Positions 1-12,583 of a DNA stretch of 13,766 nt are shown here, one piece after another (the first letter of the stretch is position 1; each line of letters begins with the position of its first letter). The stretch is from UHGV virus genome UHGV-0072288, one strand, 5' to 3'. The notes beneath the pieces are model-generated. The model saw only the letters and a list, made by a program, of their open reading frames with translations, had not been told where the DNA came from and ran no database searches. Position numbers and translations under genes: made by a program. The DNA comes from a virus.

Positions 1-42
1 TTTAGTACAGTACCCGTACTGTTTTCACGCTGTCAACAAAAA

Positions 43-61
43 ACGCGCCCGAAGGTGCGTT
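43..61 (-). terminator. Possible intrinsic terminator downstream of int (minus-strand transcript)
   Basis: Imperfect GC-rich hairpin ACGCGCC-CGAA-GGTGCGT at 43-60. An A6 run at 38-43 on the + strand gives a U-run after the stem on the minus-strand RNA. About 85 nt past the int stop. Stem has one mismatch on the minus-strand RNA. Confidence 0.3.
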
Positions 62-144
62 AATAATGCCTATCAAATAAGGCTCTCATTGATAAATCAA
101 TATGTTATGAGCGCCTTATTAACCCTAATACACCCTAAAATGCC

Positions 145-1138
145 CTAGTCGGTGGACATTATGTGGACACTCCCACGCATAGGGTTAAATCGTATGGCAT
201 CAGTCAGATAATCTGGGGCGAAGTGAGCATATGTCATTGTTTGCTCGATTGTTGTATGACCCAAAATACGCTGTAGCGTGATGATATTCCCGCCGTTGAT
301 CATGAAATGTGTTGCGAAGGTATGGCGTAAAACATGCAGTGCCTGACCTTTCGGCAAGTCTGGCTTAATCTTACGAAGAACATCGCGAACTCGCTCATAG
401 TTGGTATCGAACAATTTCCCCGATTTGCGTGTAAGGATGTAGTCCGCGATTTCCTTCGATATCGGAACAGTACGAGCTGGGCCGGTTTTGGTCTTAACAA
501 AGGTCACACGGTTACTTATCACGTTTTCAGCTTTAAGATTACTGGCTTCACCCCCATCGTGCTCCTGTATTCAGGCAAAGAACGACAACTCTGCGATCAT
601 CCCCTGTAAGGGCATTCAGCAAATGGTGGATCTCTTCTTCGGACAGAAATGACATTTCTGTGTTTTCCAGACGTAACTTCTTCACGGCGCGAAACGGGTT
701 TTCGTGATGAAATTCTTCCATATCTATCAGCAAACTGAACATGCTGGACATGGAACAGAAATCCCTGTTTACCGTGCCAGCAGATACTCCACTATGAAGT
801 CGTTCTGCACGATATTTCATCAGAAAGTTGCGGGTAAGCTCGTACACTCTGGGTTCCGCCATTTCTCGGTTGATTATTTCCAAACGCTTTTTATATGAGT
901 CACCATAGTTGTGATTCTTTCCATGGTAGCTCCACCATAAAGAAATTAACTCGGATACAAGCCTCCTGTCTGCGGGTTTATCCTGCCATTCTTTATCGTG
1001 AAAGTTTGTCAGTACATACCGCTCGTATGCCTGTGCTTCCGCCTTTCTGTCAAATTTGCGTCGAATCCTTCTTCCTGAGGTTCCGCGCGGTCTAACGTCC
1101 ACTTCAAAACGACCATCATCAAGCTTCTTAATCGACAT
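145..1138 (-). pseudogene. int: Tyrosine recombinase/integrase (P2 Int-like), reading frame broken by a +1 frameshift in a C5 run (551-555)
   Basis: Two adjacent minus-strand ORFs (548-1165 and 145-522) in different frames. N-terminal part MSIKKLDDGRFEV...LCLNTGARWG-stop; C-terminal part carries the catalytic tyrosine-recombinase region (HVLRHTFATHFMINGGNIITLQRILGHTTIEQTMTYAHFAPDYL). Removing one C from 551-555 gives a contiguous ~331-aa ORF (...GARWGEASNLKAENVISNRVTF...). Start set at ATG 1138 (GGAGGG 7 nt upstream) rather than the tool's 1165. Confidence 0.75.
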
Positions 1139-1204
1139 AGCGAAGCCCTCCGATGTATGAATCATTATGTAAATTTTGCGCTAACGCATAGAAAAACCAG
1201 ATGT

Positions 1205-1504
1205 TTAGCCAATTTTCCGGGTGGAACGGGATGATGTTATGTTGTCTTGCCCATCAGGGGAGAGAGACGGGGACACCTGCCCCGCAATTGGTGCCGTCTT
1301 ATCTGTCATTAACCAGAGTGTATATTTTTCAAACATATGTACCTCTATAACACTTTCTAAGACTTCTGCACGAGCTGGCTGATGGCCAGTTTCGTACTTT
1401 TTTATTGTTCCAAGAGCTACCCCAGTAAGCTCTGAAAAATCTTTTTGAGTTAACCCTTCAGCTTTCCGGATCTGCCGGAGTTTCTCCGCATAATTTCTTG
1501 ACAT
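1205..1504 (-). CDS. C: Immunity repressor, P2 C-like (99 aa, HTH)
   Basis: 99-aa ORF with helix-turn-helix (LTQKDFSELTGVALGTIKKYETG) and C-terminal KYTLWLMT...APIAGQ pattern resembling P2 C (recalled from memory). Lies upstream of int on the same strand and divergent from a cox-like gene, as in P2. Confidence 0.75.
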   Translation of the reverse strand: MSRNYAEKLRQIRKAEGLTQKDFSELTGVALGTIKKYETGHQPARAEVLESVIEVHMFEKYTLWLMTDKTAPIAGQVSPSLSPDGQDNITSSRSTRKIG

Positions 1505-1612
1505 GGTTCTTGTATCGCAACTATTATTGGTTCTTACAAAAGAACCTTGACAAAAGAACCCTAGAACGACTTAAAGCGCCCTAGGAACCCAAACTAACGA
1601 AGGATACCACAG
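1505..1612. promoter_or_regulatory. Divergent Pc/Pe-type promoter-operator region between C and cox
   Basis: -35-like TTGACA at 1547-1552. Inverted repeat GGTTCTTACAAAAGAACC at 1529-1546. Repeated hexamer AGAACC/GGTTCT at 1505-1510, 1529-1534, 1541-1546, 1555-1560, 1584-1589. SD GAAGGA at 1599-1604, 8 nt before the cox ATG. Confidence 0.5.
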
Positions 1613-2265: not shown

Positions 2266-2835
2266 ATGAAACATTTAATGATTGACCTTGAAACAATGGA
2301 TAATAAACCGACTTCTGCGATTGCTTCTATCGGTGCTGTATTCTTTGACCCTGAAACTGGCGAAATGGGTGAACAGTTTTATCAACGTGTCAGCCTGGGC
2401 AGCTGTGTAGGCCACGGTCTCACTATGGGGTCAGAAACCGTATTATGGTGGATGCGTCAGGATGCCGAAGCGCGTAGCGAGCTGCTTAATGACGATTGTC
2501 TGGACTTGCCTCTGACGTTAGCTAATCTGGAAGCTTTTATTACTGAGCATTCTGACCCATCTAAAGTACAGGTATGGGGGAATAGTGCAGCGTTCGACAA
2601 TGTTATTTTACGTAATGCATCAGAGAAATGCGGGTTTGCCGATCCACTTTGGTACTACTGGAATGACCGTGATGTAAGAACGGTTGTTGAACTGTCAAAA
2701 ACACTTGGGCTGAATGTTCGTAATATTATTAAGTTTGATGGTGTTAAACATCACGCTTTATATGATGCCATTCATCAGGCTAAAGTTGTTTCTTATGTCT
2801 GGATGTATCTTGTAAAAATAGCCAGTGTGAAATAA
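2266..2835 (+). CDS. DEDDh-family 3'-5' exonuclease (DnaQ/epsilon-like)
   Basis: 189-aa ORF with Exo I motif MIDLETM (D-x-E), Exo II-like WGNSAAFDNVIL and Exo III HHALYDAIHQA (H-x4-D). SD AAGGA 6 nt upstream of ATG. Confidence 0.8.
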   Translation: MKHLMIDLETMDNKPTSAIASIGAVFFDPETGEMGEQFYQRVSLGSCVGHGLTMGSETVLWWMRQDAEARSELLNDDCLDLPLTLANLEAFITEHSDPSKVQVWGNSAAFDNVILRNASEKCGFADPLWYYWNDRDVRTVVELSKTLGLNVRNIIKFDGVKHHALYDAIHQAKVVSYVWMYLVKIASVK

Positions 2836-2837
2836 CG

Positions 2838-3056
2838 ATGCTTACAGTGACCTCTCATGCAAGTGAAAGTGTCATTCACAAGGCATTTTCAGTGCTGACA
2901 GAATATTACAACGGCAAAAAGGTATATCAGGTTATTAAGCCAAAACATTATTTCTCTGTTCATGTTTCTTATCGCTGGCGATTACTGAGTAAGGATAAGG
3001 GCAGAAGCTGGGAACTAATGACACATGAGCGATATAACAAGCAGTACAGAATATAG
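2838..3056 (+). CDS. Hypothetical small protein (72 aa)
   Basis: ATG 2 nt after the exonuclease stop, co-directional, ends just before the primase-helicase gene. No recognisable motif. Confidence 0.4.
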   Translation: MLTVTSHASESVIHKAFSVLTEYYNGKKVYQVIKPKHYFSVHVSYRWRLLSKDKGRSWELMTHERYNKQYRI

Positions 3057-3095
3057 TTTTTGCCTTTTACCCATTATTTCACATCTGGATTATTT

Positions 3096-5753
3096 ATGAA
3101 CGAAACGATACAACAGGACGTTGTGCGCCGTCTTGTTCGGGACTTTGAATTTAAAGAGCGGGATAAGTATTTGCAGCAGGGCGTTTGCCCTGCCTGTCGT
3201 AAGCGCGAATTATTTACCAGCATAGAAAAGCCCTGGATTCTGAAATGTGGCCGTGAAAATAACTGCGCACATCAGATTGTCGTGAAAGAGCTGTATCCGG
3301 ATATCTTTGAAGACTGGTCAAAACGTTACCAGACCACAGAAGATAACCCCCATGCAGTAGCTGAGGCGTATCTGCGCGAGGCCAGAGGGCTGGAGACTGA
3401 GCCATTAAAAGGCTGTTTTACCCAGGGTGCATTCGTGAAAGATGGCATGGGGTCGGCAACGGTCAGATTTTCGCTGTCATGCGGTGCAACATGGGAGCGC
3501 ATCATTGACCAGCCGCAGCGCTTCGGTAAGCAGAAAGCCAACATCAGGGGAAGCTATGTCGGTCACTGGTGGGTTCCTCCCTTTATCAACCTGCAGGAAG
3601 TGAACGAAATCTGGATCACTGAGGGAATCTTCAACGCGCTGAGTCTGTGCCAGGTAGGGTTACCTGCAGTTGCCACACTGAGCAGTAACAACTATCCGCT
3701 GGCCGCACTGGATACGCTGGCCAAAGAACTGGGTGAAAAACCACGTCCACGTCTTGTATGGGCGTTTGACGGCGATAAAGCCGGCACAAAGCACACACTG
3801 GCGTTCGCTGCCCGTAGTGATGCTGCAGGATGGAAAACTCGTGCCGCGCAGCCGGTGAAATCATCGGCATCGCTGGACTGGAATGACCTGTTGTTACGTA
3901 ACCGGTTCAGTAAGTCGGACATTAAAAATTATCGCTACTATGGCGATCTCCTTCTGGCAAAAAGCCCGACTGAGAAAGCGCTGCTCATGCATCAGCATAA
4001 CGAGTGGCACTCGTTCTACTTTGAGCATAACTCCCGCATGTACTGGTTTGAGCTGGATCTGGACAGGTATATGCGAGCCTATGAGCGCATCACCAATACC
4101 GGTACCGAAGTGGTGATGGAGTGGGAGGCCAAAGAACGGGCGGTTAAAGAGTCAGGCGGCGTGACCGAAATAGCTAACTGCTGGCTGACGCCGCTTTACT
4201 TTCAGCGGTCTGAACCTACGGACGAGTCCTGGTATTACGTGAAAGTCAGTATGCCTAACCGGCCAGCCGTGAAAGATACTTTCACGGCTAATCAGCTCAC
4301 CAGCTCCGCCGAGTTCAAAAAGCGTCTGCTGCACATCGCCAAAGGGGCGGTGTACACAGGCAGCACCAAACAGCTGGATAAGTTCATCCAGATGCGCCTC
4401 CCTGAAATCAAAGAGGTAAAGACGCAGAATTTCATCGGCTATAACAAGGATTATGCCGCCTGGTTGTTTAACCGCGTGGCCGTTTGCGATGGCCGGCTGT
4501 ATGAGATGAACGACGAGGATTACTTCGAAATCAACAGTGCCAGCGTTAAGAGCCTGAGCCTCACGCCGGCGCTGGATCTGAATCCGAAGCTGAACGAGTT
4601 TACTACGGGTTGGGTAGACGATATCTGGACGGCATTTGGTGAAAAAGGGTATGTGGCGCTGGCGTTCTGGCTGGGGTCGCTGTTTGCCGAACAAATCCGC
4701 GAGCGTGACAAGTCATTTCCGTTTCTGGAAATCGTGGGCGAGCCGGGGACAGGTAAATCCACGCTGATAGAATTTCTCTGGAAGCTCGCCGGCCGTGAGG
4801 AATACGAAGGGTTTGACCCATCTAAATCTACCGCCGCCGCGCGTGGCCGTAACTTCGCCCAGGTCGGTAATCTGCCGGTTGTGCTGATTGAGGGCGACCG
4901 TACTACCGATAACGCCAAGCAACGCGCTTTTGACTGGGACGAGCTGAAATCACTGTATAACGGTCGTGCCTCCCGCGCCGTGGGTATCAAATCGAACAAT
5001 AACGAGACGTATGAGCCGCCGTTCAGGGGAAGTATTGTGATAGCGCAAAATGCCGACACAGACGGCAGCAAGGCGTTTCTGGAGCGTATCATCCACATCT
5101 ATACCGACAAGCGCGGCCAGTCCATTCAGACGCGCCACGCTGCAGAACGACTTGAACAACTCCCCGTTAGCCAGGTATCCGGATTCACATTACTGGCCAC
5201 CATGCGCGAAAAAGAAATCATGCAGACGTTCGGCAGGGGGTACGAGCGAGCTAGGAATGAGCTGGAGTCTAATAGCAGTATTCGCCATATCCGTATTGCA
5301 AAGAATCACGCGCAGCTTGTGGGCTTGCTGGAGGCGCTTGCACTTGTTGTACCGGTGCCGGTTGAACGTATAGAAAAAACGCGTGAAGCCATCACCGCGC
5401 TGGCCGTTGAACGTTGTCAGGCACTTAAAAAGGATCATCCTCTGGTGCAGGAGTTCTGGGAGCTGTTTGATTACTTGGATGAACTGGCACCTTATGGCAT
5501 CAATCATTCATCAGATGAAAATGAAATCGCGGTTAATTTCAATCACATGGAAGAGGTCGCCGCAGCACACCGGCAGCGTATTCCGTTCACGTTAACGGAA
5601 ATTAAAAAGCTGCTTAAAAACGGCAATGAGCGCCGGTTTATCAGACAAAGCACCACGCGCAGCGCGGTAAGTGAGCGCCATAATCGTGGTAAAGGGGATA
5701 TGCAACGGATGCCGGAAACATTCCGCTGCTGGATATTTGGCCGGGAAAAGTAA
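3096..5753 (+). CDS. Replication primase-helicase (zinc-ribbon + TOPRIM primase + SF3/D5-type helicase), P4 alpha-like architecture
   Basis: N-terminal Cys4 zinc ribbon (CPAC...CGRENNC). TOPRIM motifs (WITEGIFNAL; VWAFDGDKAG). C-terminal P-loop NTPase with Walker A GEPGTGKST, Walker B PVVLIEGD and motif C IVIAQNAD. The tool starts at TTG 3060; ATG 3096 (MNETIQQ) preferred. Confidence 0.85.
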   Translation: MNETIQQDVVRRLVRDFEFKERDKYLQQGVCPACRKRELFTSIEKPWILKCGRENNCAHQIVVKELYPDIFEDWSKRYQTTEDNPHAVAEAYLREARGLETEPLKGCFTQGAFVKDGMGSATVRFSLSCGATWERIIDQPQRFGKQKANIRGSYVGHWWVPPFINLQEVNEIWITEGIFNALSLCQVGLPAVATLSSNNYPLAALDTLAKELGEKPRPRLVWAFDGDKAGTKHTLAFAARSDAAGWKTRAAQPVKSSASLDWNDLLLRNRFSKSDIKNYRYYGDLLLAKSPTEKALLMHQHNEWHSFYFEHNSRMYWFELDLDRYMRAYERITNTGTEVVMEWEAKERAVKESGGVTEIANCWLTPLYFQRSEPTDESWYYVKVSMPNRPAVKDTFTANQLTSSAEFKKRLLHIAKGAVYTGSTKQLDKFIQMRLPEIKEVKTQNFIGYNKDYAAWLFNRVAVCDGRLYEMNDEDYFEINSASVKSLSLTPALDLNPKLNEFTTGWVDDIWTAFGEKGYVALAFWLGSLFAEQIRERDKSFPFLEIVGEPGTGKSTLIEFLWKLAGREEYEGFDPSKSTAAARGRNFAQVGNLPVVLIEGDRTTDNAKQRAFDWDELKSLYNGRASRAVGIKSNNNETYEPPFRGSIVIAQNADTDGSKAFLERIIHIYTDKRGQSIQTRHAAERLEQLPVSQVSGFTLLATMREKEIMQTFGRGYERARNELESNSSIRHIRIAKNHAQLVGLLEALALVVPVPVERIEKTREAITALAVERCQALKKDHPLVQEFWELFDYLDELAPYGINHSSDENEIAVNFNHMEEVAAAHRQRIPFTLTEIKKLLKNGNERRFIRQSTTRSAVSERHNRGKGDMQRMPETFRCWIFGREK

Positions 5754-5766
5754 CGGTTCACTAGTG

Positions 5767-5831
5767 CCTAACTTTATTGTTAGGGGAAGGAGCGAACATT
5801 GAAGCAATAGGGGCGTTATCTTTATTGCTTC
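5767..5831. terminator. Two hairpins between convergent primase-helicase and glycosyltransferase genes (candidate terminators)
   Basis: Hairpin CCTAAC-TTTATT-GTTAGG at 5767-5784. Hairpin GAAGCAATA-(13 nt)-TATTGCTTC at 5801-5831 followed by a T-rich stretch on the + strand. The second overlaps the stop of the minus-strand gene. Confidence 0.4.
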
Positions 5832-6541
5832 ATTCTTATTTTAAAGTTCTTTAATTTACCGTACAGAGTATCCCGCAGGGAAAACGAAGGAACCCAATCA
5901 AAACCAGTACGCCAGGGGCGTGGACTGCCATGAAAGCAAACAACCGCCACATTATCAGGGACTTTCCCTGTCGCAGCCTCAGAGGCTAAATTTGCATTGA
6001 AGCCAATCATCGAGGGGGTGGCGATGTCACATTTATAACTAACAATTGAGCCAGGAATGATATCCTGCCATAGGGCTGGTTTTATGATGCTACCGAGAAA
6101 TCCCTGATCACCCCATTTGTCTTCAGTCTGACAATTGCGCATAATTTTCTCAGGATCAATAATGAATTGTTCCCAAATCGTCTTTTTAATCGACGCCGGA
6201 ATCATCATTATTGATGAGTTTACTCTTGAGGCATGGTTAAACTCCCGAAGCATTGTAAATTTCTTCGCACCTTCGAAAATATGAATATCTCCCGTGACCA
6301 CAACATCTACGTCAAAATAGAGTAAATCTTGGTCTCCAAGGACTGGGTGATTAGGATTAAATAGTTCAATTTTAGACCACCATCCCGGCCAGTTATAAAG
6401 CAAAGGGGTTGTGTTAACTCCAGGAATATTATCTGCATCGGTTAAACATATAGATGGAATATCTTTGAACTGACGATGAAGCCATTGGGCGTGTTTAGGG
6501 GTAAACTCTTTACTACATTTAAGAACTGAGACTATTAACAT
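5822..6541 (-). CDS. GT-A fold nucleotide-sugar glycosyltransferase-like protein (GT8-like motifs), hotspot cargo
   Basis: 239-aa ORF with strong SD (GGGAGG 6 nt before ATG at 6541). DxD motif after a hydrophobic strand (LLYFDVDVVV). C-terminal FHGSPRPW resembling the GT8 H-x-G-x-x-K/R-P-W motif. Noticeably AT-rich. Confidence 0.6.
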   Translation of the reverse strand: MLIVSVLKCSKEFTPKHAQWLHRQFKDIPSICLTDADNIPGVNTTPLLYNWPGWWSKIELFNPNHPVLGDQDLLYFDVDVVVTGDIHIFEGAKKFTMLREFNHASRVNSSIMMIPASIKKTIWEQFIIDPEKIMRNCQTEDKWGDQGFLGSIIKPALWQDIIPGSIVSYKCDIATPSMIGFNANLASEAATGKVPDNVAVVCFHGSPRPWRTGFDWVPSFSLRDTLYGKLKNFKIRMKQ

Positions 6542-6600
6542 AAGATGCCTCCCAAAATTTGGAAAGATAATATCATGTTTAGGAGGGGGGGACTATTAAT
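6542..6600 (-). promoter_or_regulatory. Putative promoter/5' region of the glycosyltransferase gene, containing a homopolymer tract
   Basis: SD GGGAGG (complement of 6548-6553). -10-like TATTAT (complement of 6568-6573). G7 run on + strand at 6585-6591 (C7 in the gene's sense) where the spacer/-35 would lie. No convincing -35. Confidence 0.3.
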
Positions 6601-6655
6601 CACTTGGTCATTCATCGACGTTGATAGATGGGAATCTGTTACATCTCAGAAAATA

Positions 6656-6680
6656 AAAGCACCGGTAGCGGTGCTTTTTT
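6656..6680. terminator. Bidirectional rho-independent terminator
   Basis: Stem GCACCG/CGGTGC (6659-6664 / 6669-6674), extendable with A-T pairs, loop GTAG. T6 at 6675-6680 on the + strand and AAAATAAAA at 6650-6658 (U-run for the minus-strand transcript). Immediately follows the stop of the Ogr-like gene. Confidence 0.65.
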
Positions 6681-7010
6681 CTATGCGGCAGCAGTGCCGT
6701 CCTGACTCAGAAACTTTAACATCAGCTGCTTTTGCTGGATATCAAGGCTGTTACAGATAGTGGCGATCAACGCATCGCTGGATTTGGCGCTGGGGCTGAT
6801 GGTATGTGAGAATGTCATATTCATCACAAAAGTGTGACCACATTCAACATCGGTACACGCGCAATATAAATCCGACAGTTCCTTGTGTTTTCGGGCTGTT
6901 TTTTTGATAACAGCCCTTGCCTCACATACCGGACAGTAAACCTTCATTACCCGCATATCCATCGCTCCGGAAGTTGGAAAACGATGATATTTTAGCCTTT
7001 TTGCGAACAT
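6681..7010 (-). CDS. ogr: Ogr/Delta-family zinc-finger protein (late-gene transcription activator family)
   Basis: CPVC-x22-CACTDVEC-GHTFV pattern matching P2 Ogr (CPLC...CQNVNCSATFI, from memory). Start ATG at 7010 overlaps the portal stop (TAATG) with SD GGAAGGTG upstream. Alternative internal starts at 6956/6947 would give an Ogr-sized ~88-91 aa protein. Confidence 0.65.
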   Translation of the reverse strand: MFAKRLKYHRFPTSGAMDMRVMKVYCPVCEARAVIKKTARKHKELSDLYCACTDVECGHTFVMNMTFSHTISPSAKSSDALIATICNSLDIQQKQLMLKFLSQDGTAAA

Positions 7011-8028
7011 TAATCACCTTCCAGCTCACTGTCTTTCAGGAAATTAAGGTACAGGTGGGGCGGTACATCACTTTCCTGTTCCACTGCGGCGGTAAACATG
7101 CGCTGAATGGGCAAAATTTCTGCTTTGCGGTAGGTTTTGGACGCTTTCTCAACATCTCCCATTACTGCGCCGTTCGTCGGGATAATCCCCGCCAGTCCTG
7201 CCGGGAATCGATGCGCGGTCAGTACGTCCTGGGCGCTGATGCTCTTGATGTTCTGAAACTCATCTTTGGCGCTGATATCCCCAATCGGGATAAATTTGAT
7301 GCCGTCCGGATCGCCTTTGGGGATGTTCACAAACATGGTGCTGAAGTTCCCGATCCCCTTTGACTGCTCCAGCTTCTGAATAATTTCTTCTTCCACTTCA
7401 TCAGTCATATTTGGGTCGTTACAGTAGATCATGCCACCTGTGTGTCCGCCGTTATGGTAGTAACGCCGACGAAAAATTGTTGCCTCACCGTTAAGCAGGG
7501 CAGAATGGATACCGCTGATATAATCCGGCAGACCATAAATCGCCTGTTGCGGATCGTACTGCCTGAGAAAAATAATATCTTCAGGCGGATAAATCATCGG
7601 TTCACCCTGCTGCAGTACCACAAACTCCCCGGTCTTACGCTGGCGGGTGAAGTGGAAGCCGGGGGTTACGGTCCCCCCCCCCCCCCCCAGCCGTTACGCA
7701 CTTTCAGAATGGCCACATCACCGAAGGTCAGCCAGTCGAACACGGCTGCACCAAGCTGTTCATGCGTCAGTCCGCCGTCTTTATAGTTTGCCGTCACCAT
7801 ATTGCGACGGGCATACAGCACACCGCCGTGCTGCGCGTTCAGGTTCACCAGTTGCGCCAGCGCCAGCCGGTCAATCGGGAGCGTCCAGTGTTCCGCTTCA
7901 TTGTCATACCAGACGTCTGTGTAGTTTGTGCCGGTCGTCAGAATGGGTTCCGGTTTACCCAGGGTAATAAGGCTCATATGGCGCGGCTTGCTGGCGGTGC
8001 GGCGTTCCCTGTATTTCCGTTTTTTCAT
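7010..8028 (-). pseudogene. Q: Portal protein (P2 gpQ-like), frame interrupted by a 16-nt homopolymer
   Basis: Two minus-strand ORFs (7666-8028 and 7010-7621) together give ~340 aa, matching the ~344-aa P2 portal. The upstream frame reads ...LKVRNGWGGGGGP-stop through the G16 tract. The downstream frame is open back through the tract (...GGGGGTVTPGFHFTRQRKTGEFVVLQQGEPM...). ATGA overlap with the terminase stop at 8025-8028. Confidence 0.8.
7673..7688. repeat. Homopolymeric tract C16 (+ strand) = G16 in the portal coding sense
   Basis: Direct count: 16 consecutive C at 7673-7688. Tract lengths of 14 or 17 would join the two portal reading frames; the observed 16 does not. Confidence 0.95.
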
Positions 8029-9158
8029 GCTGCTTTCCCTAAGTTACCCCAGCGTGATTTTCGCTGGTTTTCAAAGTTTAATGGCTCGTTGTCAATGGCA
8101 TGGGCGATAGCCCAGAAACTGTCTGCGTGTCCTGTTTCTGCTGTGCGATCGGCGACGAAAGTCATTGCGTTGCCGCTGGCCGTGGACGTACGGCGGATGG
8201 TCATAAAGCTGGCGGCGATTTCGGTCTTCTCCTTATCCCATTCCACGCGGCCGTCTTCGATAACGTCGATCATCTTCATCACCAGACGATTTTTGGTCTC
8301 GACGCCGTAGCGGATCGCCACTGCCTGACGCATGGCAAAGTGCTGAACGTCTTCAAAGACACCGCTACCCAGTCCAGTGATATCAATGCCGATGTAGGTC
8401 ATGTTGTACTGGCCAAACAGCTTCTTAATCTGTGCCGCCTGCCACTTCCAGTTCATCCCCTGCCAGTGGAATACACGCAGTACCCGAAATTTTTCGCCGG
8501 CCACTATCGGCGGCGCGATGATCACGAAGGTGGAGGTGTCTCCGCTGCGAGCCGGGTCATAACCCGCCCACACTTCACGGTTGCCGAACGGCCGGGGCAG
8601 GTTTTCGTCATGATCCTCCCAGAAATACCAGGTTGCACCAATCTGGCGGCTTTTCAGGATGTTCCTGATTTGCTGATGAAGATTAGCGCGAAGGTGTTTC
8701 TGGTAACCGAAAAGGTGCTCCAGCGCGAACCGGTCAAAATCTTCCTGTGTCAGTCCGCTGATGTCGTTCTTTTTGTACTTGCCACGTTTCCGGGGCTTTT
8801 CGTCGCCACCGGACTGACGCGCCGGCGCATCATTTTCACTGTGTTTAATTTCTGCCAGCTTTTCCTGATGCTTATTGTGCTGTGCACGTAGTTTCACCAG
8901 GTGAGAAACGAGACTGTCCAGCTCCCGCAGCTCCAGCTCCGATTTCCCTTCACGTAATGTCAGTGACTGAATGCGACGGTTTAATGCATCTTCGGTGGAT
9001 TCATGACTGAGTAATTCCGCCCAGCAATATTTCTCCGCCCAGTAATAGACAATGCGTCTGTTAGGCAGATTAAGTTCGCTGGCAATTTCCTGCGGGGTAT
9101 AGCGTTTTAAATAAAGCGCCCGCGCAACGCCTTTTAATTCTTCTGAATATTTAGCCAT
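8025..9158 (-). CDS. P: Terminase large subunit (P2 gpP-like), apparently shortened: N-terminal HTH plus C-terminal nuclease, ATPase core largely missing
   Basis: N-terminal HTH (YTPQEIASELNLPNRRIVYYW). Deviant Walker-A-like KSRQIGAT followed almost immediately by nuclease-type motifs (AGYDPARSGDTSTFVI; YIGIDITGLGSG; HADSFWAIAHA). 378-382 aa versus ~590 aa recalled for P2 gpP. Start uncertain (GTG 9173 or ATG 9158, neither with a good SD). Confidence 0.65.
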   Translation of the reverse strand: MAKYSEELKGVARALYLKRYTPQEIASELNLPNRRIVYYWAEKYCWAELLSHESTEDALNRRIQSLTLREGKSELELRELDSLVSHLVKLRAQHNKHQEKLAEIKHSENDAPARQSGGDEKPRKRGKYKKNDISGLTQEDFDRFALEHLFGYQKHLRANLHQQIRNILKSRQIGATWYFWEDHDENLPRPFGNREVWAGYDPARSGDTSTFVIIAPPIVAGEKFRVLRVFHWQGMNWKWQAAQIKKLFGQYNMTYIGIDITGLGSGVFEDVQHFAMRQAVAIRYGVETKNRLVMKMIDVIEDGRVEWDKEKTEIAASFMTIRRTSTASGNAMTFVADRTAETGHADSFWAIAHAIDNEPLNFENQRKSRWGNLGKAA

Positions 9159-9301
9159 GCACACATTATGCACGGGCGTTTGTATATTAAATCCCGCTTT
9201 ATTTCTGATGTGTTCGGCTAATAGCCTATATCCGAAATGAAGTGAATGCGGCGGTTAATTTTATTGGCGATACTGAAAACCGCAGCATGAACGGAGGCAA
9301 T
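9159..9301. promoter_or_regulatory. Divergent late-promoter region between terminase (P) and scaffold (O) genes
   Basis: Position equals the P2 divergent P/O late-promoter interval. Strong SD GGAGG at 9294-9298 before the O ATG. No TGT-N12-ACA Ogr-type dyad found by eye. Confidence 0.35.
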
Positions 9302-10175: not shown

Positions 10176-11204
10176 ATGCAATTAAATGCGAAAGCCCGTG
10201 AGTTTCTGCTTCAGTATCACACCGGGCTGCGTGAATCCTACGGGGCGACCGACAGCGAACGCTGGTTTGCACTCACCGACCCCAAAGAAACCCAGCTGCG
10301 CAATGCGCTGATGGAGCAGTCTGATTTCCTGAATCTGATCACCGTTGCCGATGTCGATCAGCTGCAGGGGCAGGTGGTTCCGGTTGGCAGCTCTGGCCTG
10401 TATACCGGGCGTGTACTGGATGGCCGCTTCCGTAAGAAAGTGGGCGTGAGTGGTAATGATTACAGTCTGGTCGAGACCGACTCATGCGCCGCACTCACCT
10501 GGCAGTTGCTTTCTGTCTGGGCGAACGCCGGCGATGAAAACGAGTTTTTCCAGCGTGTTCAGGAGTTCACCAATCAGGCGTTTGCGCTGGATATGCTGCG
10601 TATCGGCTTTAACGGTACCAAAGTGGCCGAGACCACGAACGCGGAAACCAACCCGAACGGCGAGGATGTGAACAAGGGCTGGCATCAGATCGTCAAAGAG
10701 TGGAAGGACGGCCAGCAGATCATCACTGATGCGGTGGTGCTTGACGGTGACGGGAAAGGCGATTACGTGTCGCTGGATGCAATGGCCTCCGACCTTATCA
10801 ACGCCAAAATCCCGGCACAGTACCGTAATGATCCACGCCTGGTGGTTCTTGTCGGCGCTGATCTGGTCGCGGCGGAGTCGTTCCGTCTGTATCAGAAAGC
10901 AGACAAACCCACGGAGAAGATCGCCGCGCAACTGCTGTCTGACAGCATCGCCGGCCGCACGGCTTACGTACCGCCGTTTATGCCAGGCAAACGCATGATT
11001 GTTACGACACTGCCAAACCTGCACATCTACACCCAGCGCGGCACGCGTCAGCGTAAAGCGGAGTTTGTGGAAGACCGTAAACAGTACGAAAACAAATACC
11101 TGCGTAACGAAGGTTATGCGGTTGAGTATCCGGAACTGTACGCCGCGTTTGATGAAAGTGCGGTAGCTATCGGGGCACCTGTCGCGCCTCCGGCAGGCGA
11201 GTAA
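10176..11204 (+). CDS. N: Major capsid protein (P2 gpN-like)
   Basis: 342-aa ORF directly downstream of the scaffold gene with SD AAGGA. Size and position match P2 gpN (~357 aa). Confidence 0.75.
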   Translation: MQLNAKAREFLLQYHTGLRESYGATDSERWFALTDPKETQLRNALMEQSDFLNLITVADVDQLQGQVVPVGSSGLYTGRVLDGRFRKKVGVSGNDYSLVETDSCAALTWQLLSVWANAGDENEFFQRVQEFTNQAFALDMLRIGFNGTKVAETTNAETNPNGEDVNKGWHQIVKEWKDGQQIITDAVVLDGDGKGDYVSLDAMASDLINAKIPAQYRNDPRLVVLVGADLVAAESFRLYQKADKPTEKIAAQLLSDSIAGRTAYVPPFMPGKRMIVTTLPNLHIYTQRGTRQRKAEFVEDRKQYENKYLRNEGYAVEYPELYAAFDESAVAIGAPVAPPAGE

Positions 11205-11214
11205 GGGGGATTTA

Positions 11215-12252
11215 ATGCAACTGTCACCGGCACAGCGCCACAGCGCACGAATTGAAGCGGAGCGGTTACTGCGACAGCAGCAGTCTCTGGACACGGAAAC
11301 CAGCCTGCATATTCAGATTGTCGCGCTGGAGAAAGATGTCGCCGCAGCTGCAGCGATTGAAAGCCGCGCTGAGCGAATGGAATTTAAGCGTGATGTGCTG
11401 TTACCGCGCTGGATGCCAACCGCGCAAGCCGGGACGGTTATCCAGACAGAGCGCATTAACGGTCGCGTGTATGAGCTGGCCACCAGTGAGGATGTAGTGA
11501 TCGCTTCCGGTACGGCCTGCGCATTACTGCCGGTAAAAGCCACCGGCACCGGGGGCGCATATAACCTTGCGCCGGGATATTACCGCATTCTGCCGGTTGC
11601 CGTTGACGGTATCAGCCACGTGGCCAGCGAAGAAAACTGGCTGACCGTACCGGGCGCGGATGAAGAAAGTGATGACGAGCTGCGCGAACGCTGCCGCAAT
11701 CAGTTCAATCTGGTGGGGAATTACCACACTGACGCCGTTTACCGGTCGATGATTGCCGGCGTTGCAGGGCTGAGTATTGACCGGATTTTCTTTGAACATG
11801 AAGCGCCGAGGGGACCCGGTACCGCCAACGCGTATCTGTTGCTGGACAGCGGGGTGGCTTCTTCGCCGTTCGTGGATGCCGTCAATGACTATATCAACAC
11901 GCAGGGGCATCACGGCCACGGTGATGATATGCAGTGCTATCCCATGCCGGAAACGCTTCATGATCTGTCCGTCACAGTTTATGTCAAAAATCTGGCCAAT
12001 TTCAGCGATGAGGACAGGAAAACCCTGAAGGACGGGGTGGAGAACATGATCCGCTGTGCTTTTCGTGAGAATGCTGATTATGACGTCAGGAAGACGTGGC
12101 CATATTCGCGTTTTTCCTTTTCTCAGCTGGGGCGGGAGATCCACAGGACATTTGCTCAGACGGAATCACTGTCTTTTTCACTGGGTGATATCACCAGCGA
12201 ACTGAGTGTTCCACGCCTGAAATCGCTTGCGGTTGTTGTTGAAAATGAGTGA
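11215..12252 (+). CDS. Chimeric ORF: terminase small/endonuclease subunit (gpM-like) N-terminus (~73 aa) fused to a baseplate protein J-like body
   Basis: N-terminus MQLSPAQRH...KRDVLLPRWMP matches the gpM start (MTSPAQRH...KRELLPFWLPW, from memory). The remainder (...ESDDELRERCRNQF...GVASSPFVDAVNDYI...) resembles P2 gpJ (...ESDTDYRLRIQQAF...GVASEDLLAVVRNAL...). Implies an in-frame deletion of the M-to-J interval. Confidence 0.5.
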   Translation: MQLSPAQRHSARIEAERLLRQQQSLDTETSLHIQIVALEKDVAAAAAIESRAERMEFKRDVLLPRWMPTAQAGTVIQTERINGRVYELATSEDVVIASGTACALLPVKATGTGGAYNLAPGYYRILPVAVDGISHVASEENWLTVPGADEESDDELRERCRNQFNLVGNYHTDAVYRSMIAGVAGLSIDRIFFEHEAPRGPGTANAYLLLDSGVASSPFVDAVNDYINTQGHHGHGDDMQCYPMPETLHDLSVTVYVKNLANFSDEDRKTLKDGVENMIRCAFRENADYDVRKTWPYSRFSFSQLGREIHRTFAQTESLSFSLGDITSELSVPRLKSLAVVVENE

Positions 12253-12583
12253 GTTCCTGAAAAAGCTGGCCGGGATGGTGCTTCCTTCCTGGATGAACAA
12301 AGGCGAGCCGGCGAAGCTGCTGAAAACGGCGCGGCGGTTCTGGACTGAGGTTTACGGCTGGGTTACGTGGCCAGTGAATCAGTTCGATCCGCTGACGTGT
12401 ACGCCGGCATTACTGAACCTGCTGGCGTATGACCGCGATATACCGACCTGCTTTTGCGCTGGTTTACCGGTTATGTTGAACGTTCACAACCAGCTGAAAA
12501 CGGTTATCAGCGTCTGTTCATTCGTGAGCTGGCCGGTGTTTTTGAAAGGATGTGGCCATGTTCATTTCAGCACCCGACATTAA
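12245..12583 (+). CDS. Tail protein I-like (gpI / YmfQ family), C-terminal part doubtful
   Basis: ATG 12245 overlaps the upstream stop (ATGAGTGA). N-terminal ~65 aa (...VNQFDPLTCTPALLNLLAYDRDI) resembles gpI (...WNPDTCPANLLPWLAWAFSVDRWD). After ~12440 the frame is Cys-rich and atypical, while frame 2 opens at 12433 and stays open to the window end. Confidence 0.45.
   Translation: MSEFLKKLAGMVLPSWMNKGEPAKLLKTARRFWTEVYGWVTWPVNQFDPLTCTPALLNLLAYDRDIPTCFCAGLPVMLNVHNQLKTVISVCSFVSWPVFLKGCGHVHFSTRH

Follow-up and report, generated by a model that had tools for sequence, protein, structure and literature searches.

A predicted phiCTX-type primase-helicase in the gpA position of a defective P2-like prophage of Escherichia coli

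Phage P2 replicates by means of gpA, an HUH rolling-circle initiator that acts with gpB and is encoded in the early operon, upstream of a cargo hotspot and the portal gene. In the satellite phage P4, a single polypeptide (gp alpha) combines a zinc ribbon, a TOPRIM primase, an AAA+ helicase and winged-helix origin binding, and is associated with iteron-type origins. In staphylococci, Cch of the staphylococcal cassette chromosome mec (SCCmec; PDB 5dgk) and Rep of the Staphylococcus aureus pathogenicity island (SaPI) SaPIbov1 (PDB 8tch) are initiator-helicases that load themselves and belong to the DUF927 group. SaPI Reps and Cch2 use a winged-helix C-terminal domain to bind iterons and are self-loading 3'-5' helicases (PMC9371898, PMC7581432), and the SaPI primase is usually encoded by a separate upstream gene (PMC9371898). 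Among P2-like phages, ORF47 of RSY1 has been described as a homologue of DnaG-type primases with a likely role in replication, within an early region that differs markedly from that of P2 (PMC5694545). Here, a gene of the RSY1 ORF47 family is described at positions 3096-5753 of UHGV virus genome UHGV-0072288, a stretch of 13,766 nucleotides (the window) that is a defective P2-like prophage in E. coli whose early operon, including this gene, is intact. The gene product is likely to serve a phiCTX-type P2-like (Peduoviridae) prophage as its only, self-contained replication initiator, and to join a DnaG-type primase to a self-loading AAA+ helicase of the Cch/SaPIbov1 Rep type and a winged helix.

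The gene in the gpA position and its primase half

The gene is one intact open reading frame (ORF) of 885 codons on the plus strand, running from an ATG at 3096 to a stop codon at 5751-5753. The start MN(E/A)TIQQD is common to all close homologues and is identical to the RefSeq start in E. coli PK5, where the frame is labelled 'toprim domain-containing protein'; the window and PK5 alleles differ at a single nucleotide (3655; V187 in the window, A in PK5). The phrog_1139 'DNA primase' profile covers residues 3-884 of 885 (E = 0, 1239 bits), and the protein shares 95% amino acid identity with gp29, annotated 'DNA primase', of Escherichia phage ESSI2_ev239 (Peduoviridae, Evevirus; a complete deposited phage genome). 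More distant full-length homologues (29-47% identity) are present in RSY1 (ORF47, 47%), phiCTX (orf37, 41%), phi3 (29%), Smp131, Dobby and others. Using tblastn, 40 phage records from several Peduoviridae genera were matched at 96-100% coverage and 29-95% identity; for scale, gpA is present in 385 phage records. The family comprises more than 2,200 protein clusters in a large protein collection, and some member of it occurs in about 92 of 5,426 complete E. coli genomes. The primase-helicase is thus already known and catalogued (PHROG 1139, phiCTX orf37, RSY1 ORF47, ESSI2_ev239 gp29) and, judged by sequence, replaces gpA in several Peduoviridae genera. In the ESSI2_ev239/RSY1/phiCTX family, where database names are 'toprim domain-containing protein' or 'bifunctional DNA primase/helicase', the gene fills the same slot, as the last or one of the last genes in the early operon of a P2-like genome; in phi3, it directly follows cox. 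Nothing substantive distinguishes the window copy from these relatives, except that it resides in a defective prophage. Its presence is therefore a correct but ordinary finding that would not surprise a phage specialist. As a separate observation, the Smp131 gene annotated 'DNA primase' (25406-27958) ends in an Arg/Pro-rich tail that cannot be aligned with the family; tblastn recovers the missing C-terminus as a second piece reaching 28085, and the deposited sequence or its annotation seems to be frameshifted.

The protein is unrelated to P2 gpA, although the two occupy equivalent positions, and a different initiation chemistry is implied. It contains no HUH motif (the only HxH, HQH at residue 299, is not conserved among 30 homologues), lacks the catalytic Tyr pair of gpA, has no Phage_GPA match in Pfam and shows no BLASTP similarity to P2 gpA. 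Furthermore, tblastn with gpA and gpB against all six frames of the entire window found no homologue (best E value 0.34), and the window holds no other replication gene. The initial annotation, in which a zinc-ribbon/TOPRIM primase fused to a helicase took the place of a gpA-type initiator among P2-like structural genes, is borne out in these respects: Cys4, TOPRIM and ATPase motifs are all present, gpA and gpB are absent, and the flanking late genes (portal, large terminase, GPO scaffold and P2-family capsid) are P2-type. The mosaic early region that it proposed is also seen, but given the 40 full-length phage records, the more than 2,200 clusters and the RSY1 description, this mosaic is what is normally found in a smaller, already known branch of the P2-like phages.

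Sequence comparison identifies the N-terminal third as a DnaG-type primase, composed of a Cys4 zinc ribbon and a TOPRIM domain, for which primer synthesis is predicted. Conservation was assessed in an alignment of 30 homologues (49-89% identity), all of which keep C31, C34, C51 and C57. With Pfam, the protein matches no zinc-ribbon model above its cut-off, and Zn_Ribbon_Prim (PF08273) is absent; the AlphaFold2 (AF2) model superposes on fragments of DnaG and T7 primase that include the zinc-binding domain. Residues 172-268 match Toprim_3 (E = 2.5e-11) and Toprim_2 (E = 7e-10) in Pfam, and the RNA-polymerase-domain fold of DnaG-type primases is present. The conserved Glu and DxD of TOPRIM proteins are found as E176, D225 and D227 (DGD, nucleotides 3768-3776), and E176, D225 and D261-W262 are invariant. 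The only NCBIfam matches are to dnaG, TrlF and a kinase family.

The predicted helicase half and its structural relatives

The remainder of the protein carries ATPase motifs that are invariant in the 30 homologues: GxxGxGK[ST] at 548-556 (Walker A, with G548, G553 and K554 unchanged and Ser or Thr at 555), E599/D601/R602, Q651/N652 and R664. The corresponding Pfam match, to the P-loop family DUF5906 (residues 546-654, E = 1.5e-4), reaches 22.8 bits against a cut-off of 27.6, and is likewise sub-threshold in 27 of the 30 relatives. An AF2 model built from the 30-homologue alignment (mean predicted local distance difference test [pLDDT] 86.5; predicted template modelling score [pTM] 0.64) was compared with known structures. 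The top match was SCCmec Cch (24.9, with 444 residues aligned), followed by SaPIbov1 Rep (22.5), whereas the N-terminal third matched DnaG and T7 primase (12.5-14.2). Lower values were obtained for SaPI5 PriRep5 (12.2), an archaeal MCM homologue (12.1), vaccinia D5 (12.0), MCM7 (11.9), African swine fever virus (ASFV) C962R (11.7), NrS-1 (9.2) and E1 (8.8), and the order of these neighbours was unchanged when ranked with Foldseek. In a viral structure library, the best matches were phage proteins with Toprim and DUF927 domains, and P4 alpha fell outside the top 50.

The three-part fold of Cch and SaPIbov1 Rep (N-terminal domain, AAA+ core and winged-helix C-terminal domain) is recognisable in the model. 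On this predicted structure, the helicase half groups with Cch and SaPIbov1 Rep, and its fold suggests a 3'-5' hexameric activity. Similarly, the C-terminal winged-helix-like domain (residues 801-885) is presumed to be the origin-binding module, by comparison with the winged-helix C-terminal domains of SaPI Reps and Cch (PMC9371898). Unlike Cch and SaPIbov1 Rep, which have no fused primase, the window protein unites both predicted activities in one chain. The DUF927 signature itself has no match in the protein at E <= 1 and is outside the 25 families most matched by the 30 relatives. The labelling of the Cch/Rep helicase group is inconsistent in the literature: the DUF927 group is listed among putative superfamily 3 (SF3) helicases, often fused to DnaG-type or archaeo-eukaryotic primase (AEP)-type primases (PMC4889955), and the related Rep2 has been assigned to superfamily 6 (SF6) (PMC9371898).

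The family placement proposed by the initial annotation, an SF3 primase-helicase related to P4 alpha and poxvirus D5 with an origin adjoining the gene, is unlikely. The domain order is the same as in P4 alpha, Toprim_3 is common to both, DUF5906 also occurs in P4 alpha, weak collinear BLASTP matches are found at TOPRIM and Walker A (E = 0.002-0.003), and the DUF927 group has been filed under putative SF3 helicases (PMC4889955). However, when the two proteins are examined side by side with Pfam, P4 alpha matches Zn_Ribbon_Prim (1.9e-18), Toprim_3, D5_N (4.7e-12), DUF5906 and Pox_D5 (3.6e-16), whereas the window protein matches the TOPRIM models and, below its cut-off, DUF5906. D5_N (PF08706) is absent from the window protein at E <= 1, Pox_D5/Primase_Cterm (PF03288) is absent among its Pfam and NCBIfam matches, and D5-type helicases are not its closest structural neighbours. 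In addition, a profile-profile comparison with P4 alpha aligns the TOPRIM segment alone. Because D5_N, Pox_D5 and Zn_Ribbon_Prim are lacking and the profile alignment is restricted to TOPRIM, the window protein has a layout resembling that of P4 alpha but is outside the P4 alpha/D5 family. The logic of uniting zinc ribbon, primase, helicase and origin-binding winged helix in one polypeptide, together with iteron-type origins, would still be shared with P4 alpha, with a different helicase family in use.

A second alternative is that the protein is a primase only, the C-terminal P-loop region being a regulatory or loader NTPase, and that host DnaB or Rep unwinds the DNA. The database names 'DNA primase' and 'toprim domain-containing protein' are consistent with this, as is the lack of any Pfam helicase model above its cut-off; it is considered quite improbable.

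Iteron clusters in phages that carry the gene

The initial annotation also pointed to an iteron-type origin near or inside the 3' region of the gene. The window was scanned with 9-mers allowing one mismatch and for clusters of exact 6-8-mers, with shuffles as the null. Within and beside the gene, no cluster rose above the shuffled null, and a SaPI-like origin directly 3' of the gene is not present in the window; in SaPIs the origin is immediately 3' of rep, whereas in the window lineage this position is a variable cargo hotspot. The only k-mer cluster above shuffles between 1100 and 7100 is an operator-like set of four AAGAACC repeats at 1503-1562. These GGTTCTT/AAGAACC copies, two in direct orientation followed by two inverted, overlap the putative early promoter located between the genes for the C-type repressor and Cox, and are probably repressor/Cox operators.

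Two candidates within the gene were rejected. CTTTCA/TGAAAG repeats and an 11-bp palindrome at 4199-4289 are altered at synonymous sites in some or most of seven relatives, and therefore look like chance occurrences. The only dip in synonymous divergence lies at 3846-3966 (0.155, compared with a mean of 0.30; permutation p 0.034, eight alleles), where codons with two-fold degeneracy (K, N, Y, D) follow one another; it was therefore not counted as evidence for an embedded origin and is probably an effect of codon composition. A small conserved hairpin, ATCGC-TACTATG-GCGAT, lies at 3931-3947 in the same interval.

Whole-genome k-mer cluster tests were then applied to relatives, with P4 crr and ori recovered as a positive control. 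One dominant iteron cluster was found in every family-carrying genome examined (phi3, phiCTX, Smp131, RSY1 and ESSI2_ev239; Table 1), and P2 has no intergenic iteron cluster. Each cluster contains 8-17 short iterons, arranged in most cases as two blocks of opposite orientation on either side of AT-rich DNA. The clusters exceed shuffled controls, RSY1 solely with a degenerate motif. In phi3, the iterons lie directly 3' of the gene, as in SaPIs. Comparisons between phages suggest that the clusters accompany the primase-helicase type rather than packaging or integration functions. For instance, RSA1 and RSY1 have nearly the same small terminase (99% identical), large terminase and portal (both 96%) and yet carry unrelated primases, and the GGTAA cluster is in RSY1 only, although this contrast with packaging comes from one phage pair. 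Similarly, RSY1, phiCTX and Smp131 have an iteron in common and unrelated integrases.

At about 900 bp past the end of the window, the PK5 prophage has a version of the ESSI2_ev239 cluster with 92% conservation, and no C(A/G)TCACA cluster occurs within the window. Outside the window, 11 C(A/G)TCACA repeats close to the prophage's attR end are thus a lead to the candidate origin of the window lineage. More generally, the iteron clusters are candidate replication origins in the sense of a lead, not a demonstration, and no paper describing them as origins was found in the literature. ESSI2_ev239 also has six GTCCACA/TGTGGAC repeats around a spacer of roughly 130 bp (26742-26965), directly after the integrase gene; these are probably arm-type sites of attP, and the C(A/G)TCACA cluster, 1.4 kb away, is a separate feature.

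Table 1. Features of the window and iteron clusters of related genomes (window coordinates unless a phage or strain is named)
Feature	Location	Strand	Details
Primase-helicase gene	3096..5753	+	885 aa plus stop; final gene of early operon; PHROG 1139 full-length, E = 0
Cys4 zinc ribbon	3153..3281	+	aa 20-62; C31, C34, C51, C57
N-terminal subdomain, DnaG-type RNA-polymerase domain	3282..3590	+	aa 63-165
TOPRIM domain	3591..3905	+	aa 166-270; E176, D225-x-D227, D261-W-N-D264; Pfam Toprim_3 2.5e-11 plus conservation
Beta-rich N-terminal domain of helicase module	4011..4595	+	aa 306-500
AAA+ ATPase core	4596..5120	+	aa 501-675; Walker A nt 4737-4763, Walker B aa 594-602, sensor-1 Q651/N652
Putative Arg finger R664	within 4596..5120	+	in AAA+ core; invariant in 30 homologues
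Candidate pre-sensor-1 hairpin	aa 622-645	+	low-confidence loop of AF2 model
All-helical domain after ATPase	5121..5495	+	aa 676-800; AF2 pLDDT about 90
Winged-helix-like C-terminal domain	5496..5750	+	aa 801-885; AF2 order strand-helix-helix-strand-helix-strand
Early-promoter candidate TTGACA-18-TATTAT	1498..1527	+	between C-type repressor and cox genes; would drive early operon
Upstream part of conserved module	2781..3095	+	includes ParE-like ORF 2838-3056
Terminator-like hairpin plus T-run	5800..5832	+	47 nt past primase-helicase stop codon
Integrase gene, split	145-1165	-	1-bp insertion (extra C) at 551
Portal gene, split	7010-8028	-	34-bp patch 7649-7682
Large terminase gene	8025-9173	-	645 bp deleted relative to E. 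coli PK5
Fusion ORF	11215-12252	+	small terminase N-terminus joined to baseplate-wedge (gpJ-like) protein; all between lost
phi3 iterons	7404-7709	both	15 exact GGAACA, about 17 by eye as TGTTCC(G/A)G
phi3 iteron region (TGTTCCGG)	440-bp gap directly 3' of gene	both	around AT-rich stretch; the phi3 protein is gp05
phiCTX iterons	35107-35383		12-13 GGTAAT; region annotated with 'R3 repeats' in record, between attP and cos
Smp131 iterons	33053-33330		9-10 GGTAA[CT]
RSY1 iterons	16-290		10 GGTAA[CT]; between attP and cos
ESSI2_ev239 iterons	28388-28652		11 C(A/G)TCACA
E. coli PK5 iterons	17258-17522		counterpart of ESSI2_ev239 cluster; PK5 genome positions 1178742-1179006
RSA1 iterons	35070-35438		(A)CCCGTGGA(A) cluster; just 3' of RSA1's own, different Toprim protein

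State of the prophage and implications for replication

The early operon runs from the promoter-like site through cox, a small ORF, a DEDDh 3'-5' exonuclease gene and a ParE-like ORF (72 aa; Pfam ParE_like 8e-17) to the primase-helicase gene. Three of seven relatives have a gap in homology from about 2396 to 2781; it resumes at 2781/2782, and this point thus behaves as a recombination boundary; in all seven, homology ends at the primase stop codon. The ParE-like ORF was considered as a conserved partner of the primase and rejected, as no counterpart precedes the homologous gene in phiCTX or RSY1. In eight close relatives, homology breaks within a few bases of the stop codon and returns only at the ogr gene, and the low-GC interval between (5757-6780) is entirely different in each. 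It follows that this segment is a hotspot for cargo genes and corresponds to the gpA-gpQ defence hotspot known from P2 (PMC13586616). It contains a minus-strand gene (5822-6541; 239 aa) that matches phrog_1962, listed as a moron ('glycosyltransferase'), and that has no Pfam, NCBIfam or PADLOC match; PADLOC and NCBIfam searches of the neighbouring small genes gave nothing useful.

About fifteen complete E. coli genomes match the window at 99.8% identity across 83-85% of its length, with the prophage integrated beside pheL/pheA of the chromosome. Several of its genes are broken or deleted (Table 1). The 34-bp patch in the portal gene differs from PK5 at 16 positions and creates a C16 run (7673-7688), with just four other differences in the surrounding 8.6 kb; it has the look of an error in sequencing or assembly, or else of a highly unusual local event. 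PK5 carries another deletion, in which the equivalent of window 10407-12439 is missing, and the strains thus hold different decay states of one prophage. Nothing suggests helper dependence, a point that the initial annotation had raised. P4 is a satellite, whereas the window gene belongs to phages with their own virion genes; for instance, ESSI2_ev239 carries it amid a full set of head, tail and lysis genes. Overall, the architecture proposed by that annotation was supported, and its family, origin location and helper inference were not.

The broken integrase, portal and terminase genes and the deleted tail genes could also indicate that the gene is a relic, intact only through recent decay and without present function, or that it has been co-opted for defence, as its TOPRIM part weakly matches DnaG-like modules of DRT systems (PADLOC, E = 8e-7). 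However, decay bears on present use and not on the identity of the protein, the gene is one nucleotide from the PK5 allele and 95% identical to that of a complete phage genome, and the PADLOC matches span the generic TOPRIM fold only. Relic status or defensive co-option is therefore regarded as very improbable.

If the gene does encode a self-contained initiator, then derepression of the early operon would come first, after which the winged helix would bind short iterons at the phage origin. The protein would load itself as a hexamer, melt the AT-rich spacer, unwind DNA by 3'-to-5' translocation and prime synthesis for host Pol III. The outcome would be theta-type initiation, as opposed to the nick-primed rolling circle of P2 gpA. 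Helicase polarity, origin binding and the theta mode are extrapolated here from studied relatives (PMC9371898, PMC7581432).

Several observations weigh against this interpretation. Biochemical data for any member of the family were not found in the literature searched. Cch, Rep, D5 and MCM show no similarity that can be detected in sequence, and PDB sequence searches with the window protein and the family profile returned the TOPRIM of DnaG (E about 0.02) but not a single helicase; it is thus a predicted structure that underlies the helicase assignment. In 13 of the 30 homologues, Gly replaces the second Asp of the TOPRIM DxD motif, and 7 of these 13 have a single Asp (DNG or DTG); primase activity may not be universal across the family, although the window protein keeps DGD. 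In four of five genomes, the iteron clusters lie between attP and cos, and they might conceivably have a role in packaging or recombination. Winged-helix identity does not predict iteron sequence, and no clear covariation was seen. Finally, the prophage is defective and its decay is apparently recent, such that the intact early operon is not evidence of selection and the gene may no longer be used.

A broader proposal, which is speculative and rather doubtful, is that phiCTX-type proteins form an uncharacterised class of three-in-one initiators (DnaG primase, Cch-like 'MCM-like' helicase and winged helix), whose origins are iteron/AT-rich clusters, mostly between attP and cos, such as the 'R3 repeats' to which the phiCTX record assigns no function. 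In this proposal, a defective prophage by pheA in some E. coli strains (e.g. PK5) would keep its switch, initiator and origin, and induction could over-replicate the pheA-raiA region in situ.

With respect to annotation, 'DNA primase' and 'toprim domain-containing protein' understate a predicted initiator-primase-helicase, and these labels are corrected accordingly. Where a pipeline relies on gpA to define P2-like prophages, the phiCTX-type branch will be missed or ranked too low; the incomplete P2-like types of one study are reported to be often without an integrase or 'primase' component (PMC13586616). P2-like virion modules pair with at least three unrelated replication initiators, namely gpA, the phiCTX type and the RSA1 type, and both Toprim types (phiCTX and RSA1) come with an iteron cluster of their own. 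The structural link to staphylococcal Cch and SaPI Rep, as predicted here, joins a large family of proteobacterial phage proteins to the sole biochemically studied members of this helicase group.

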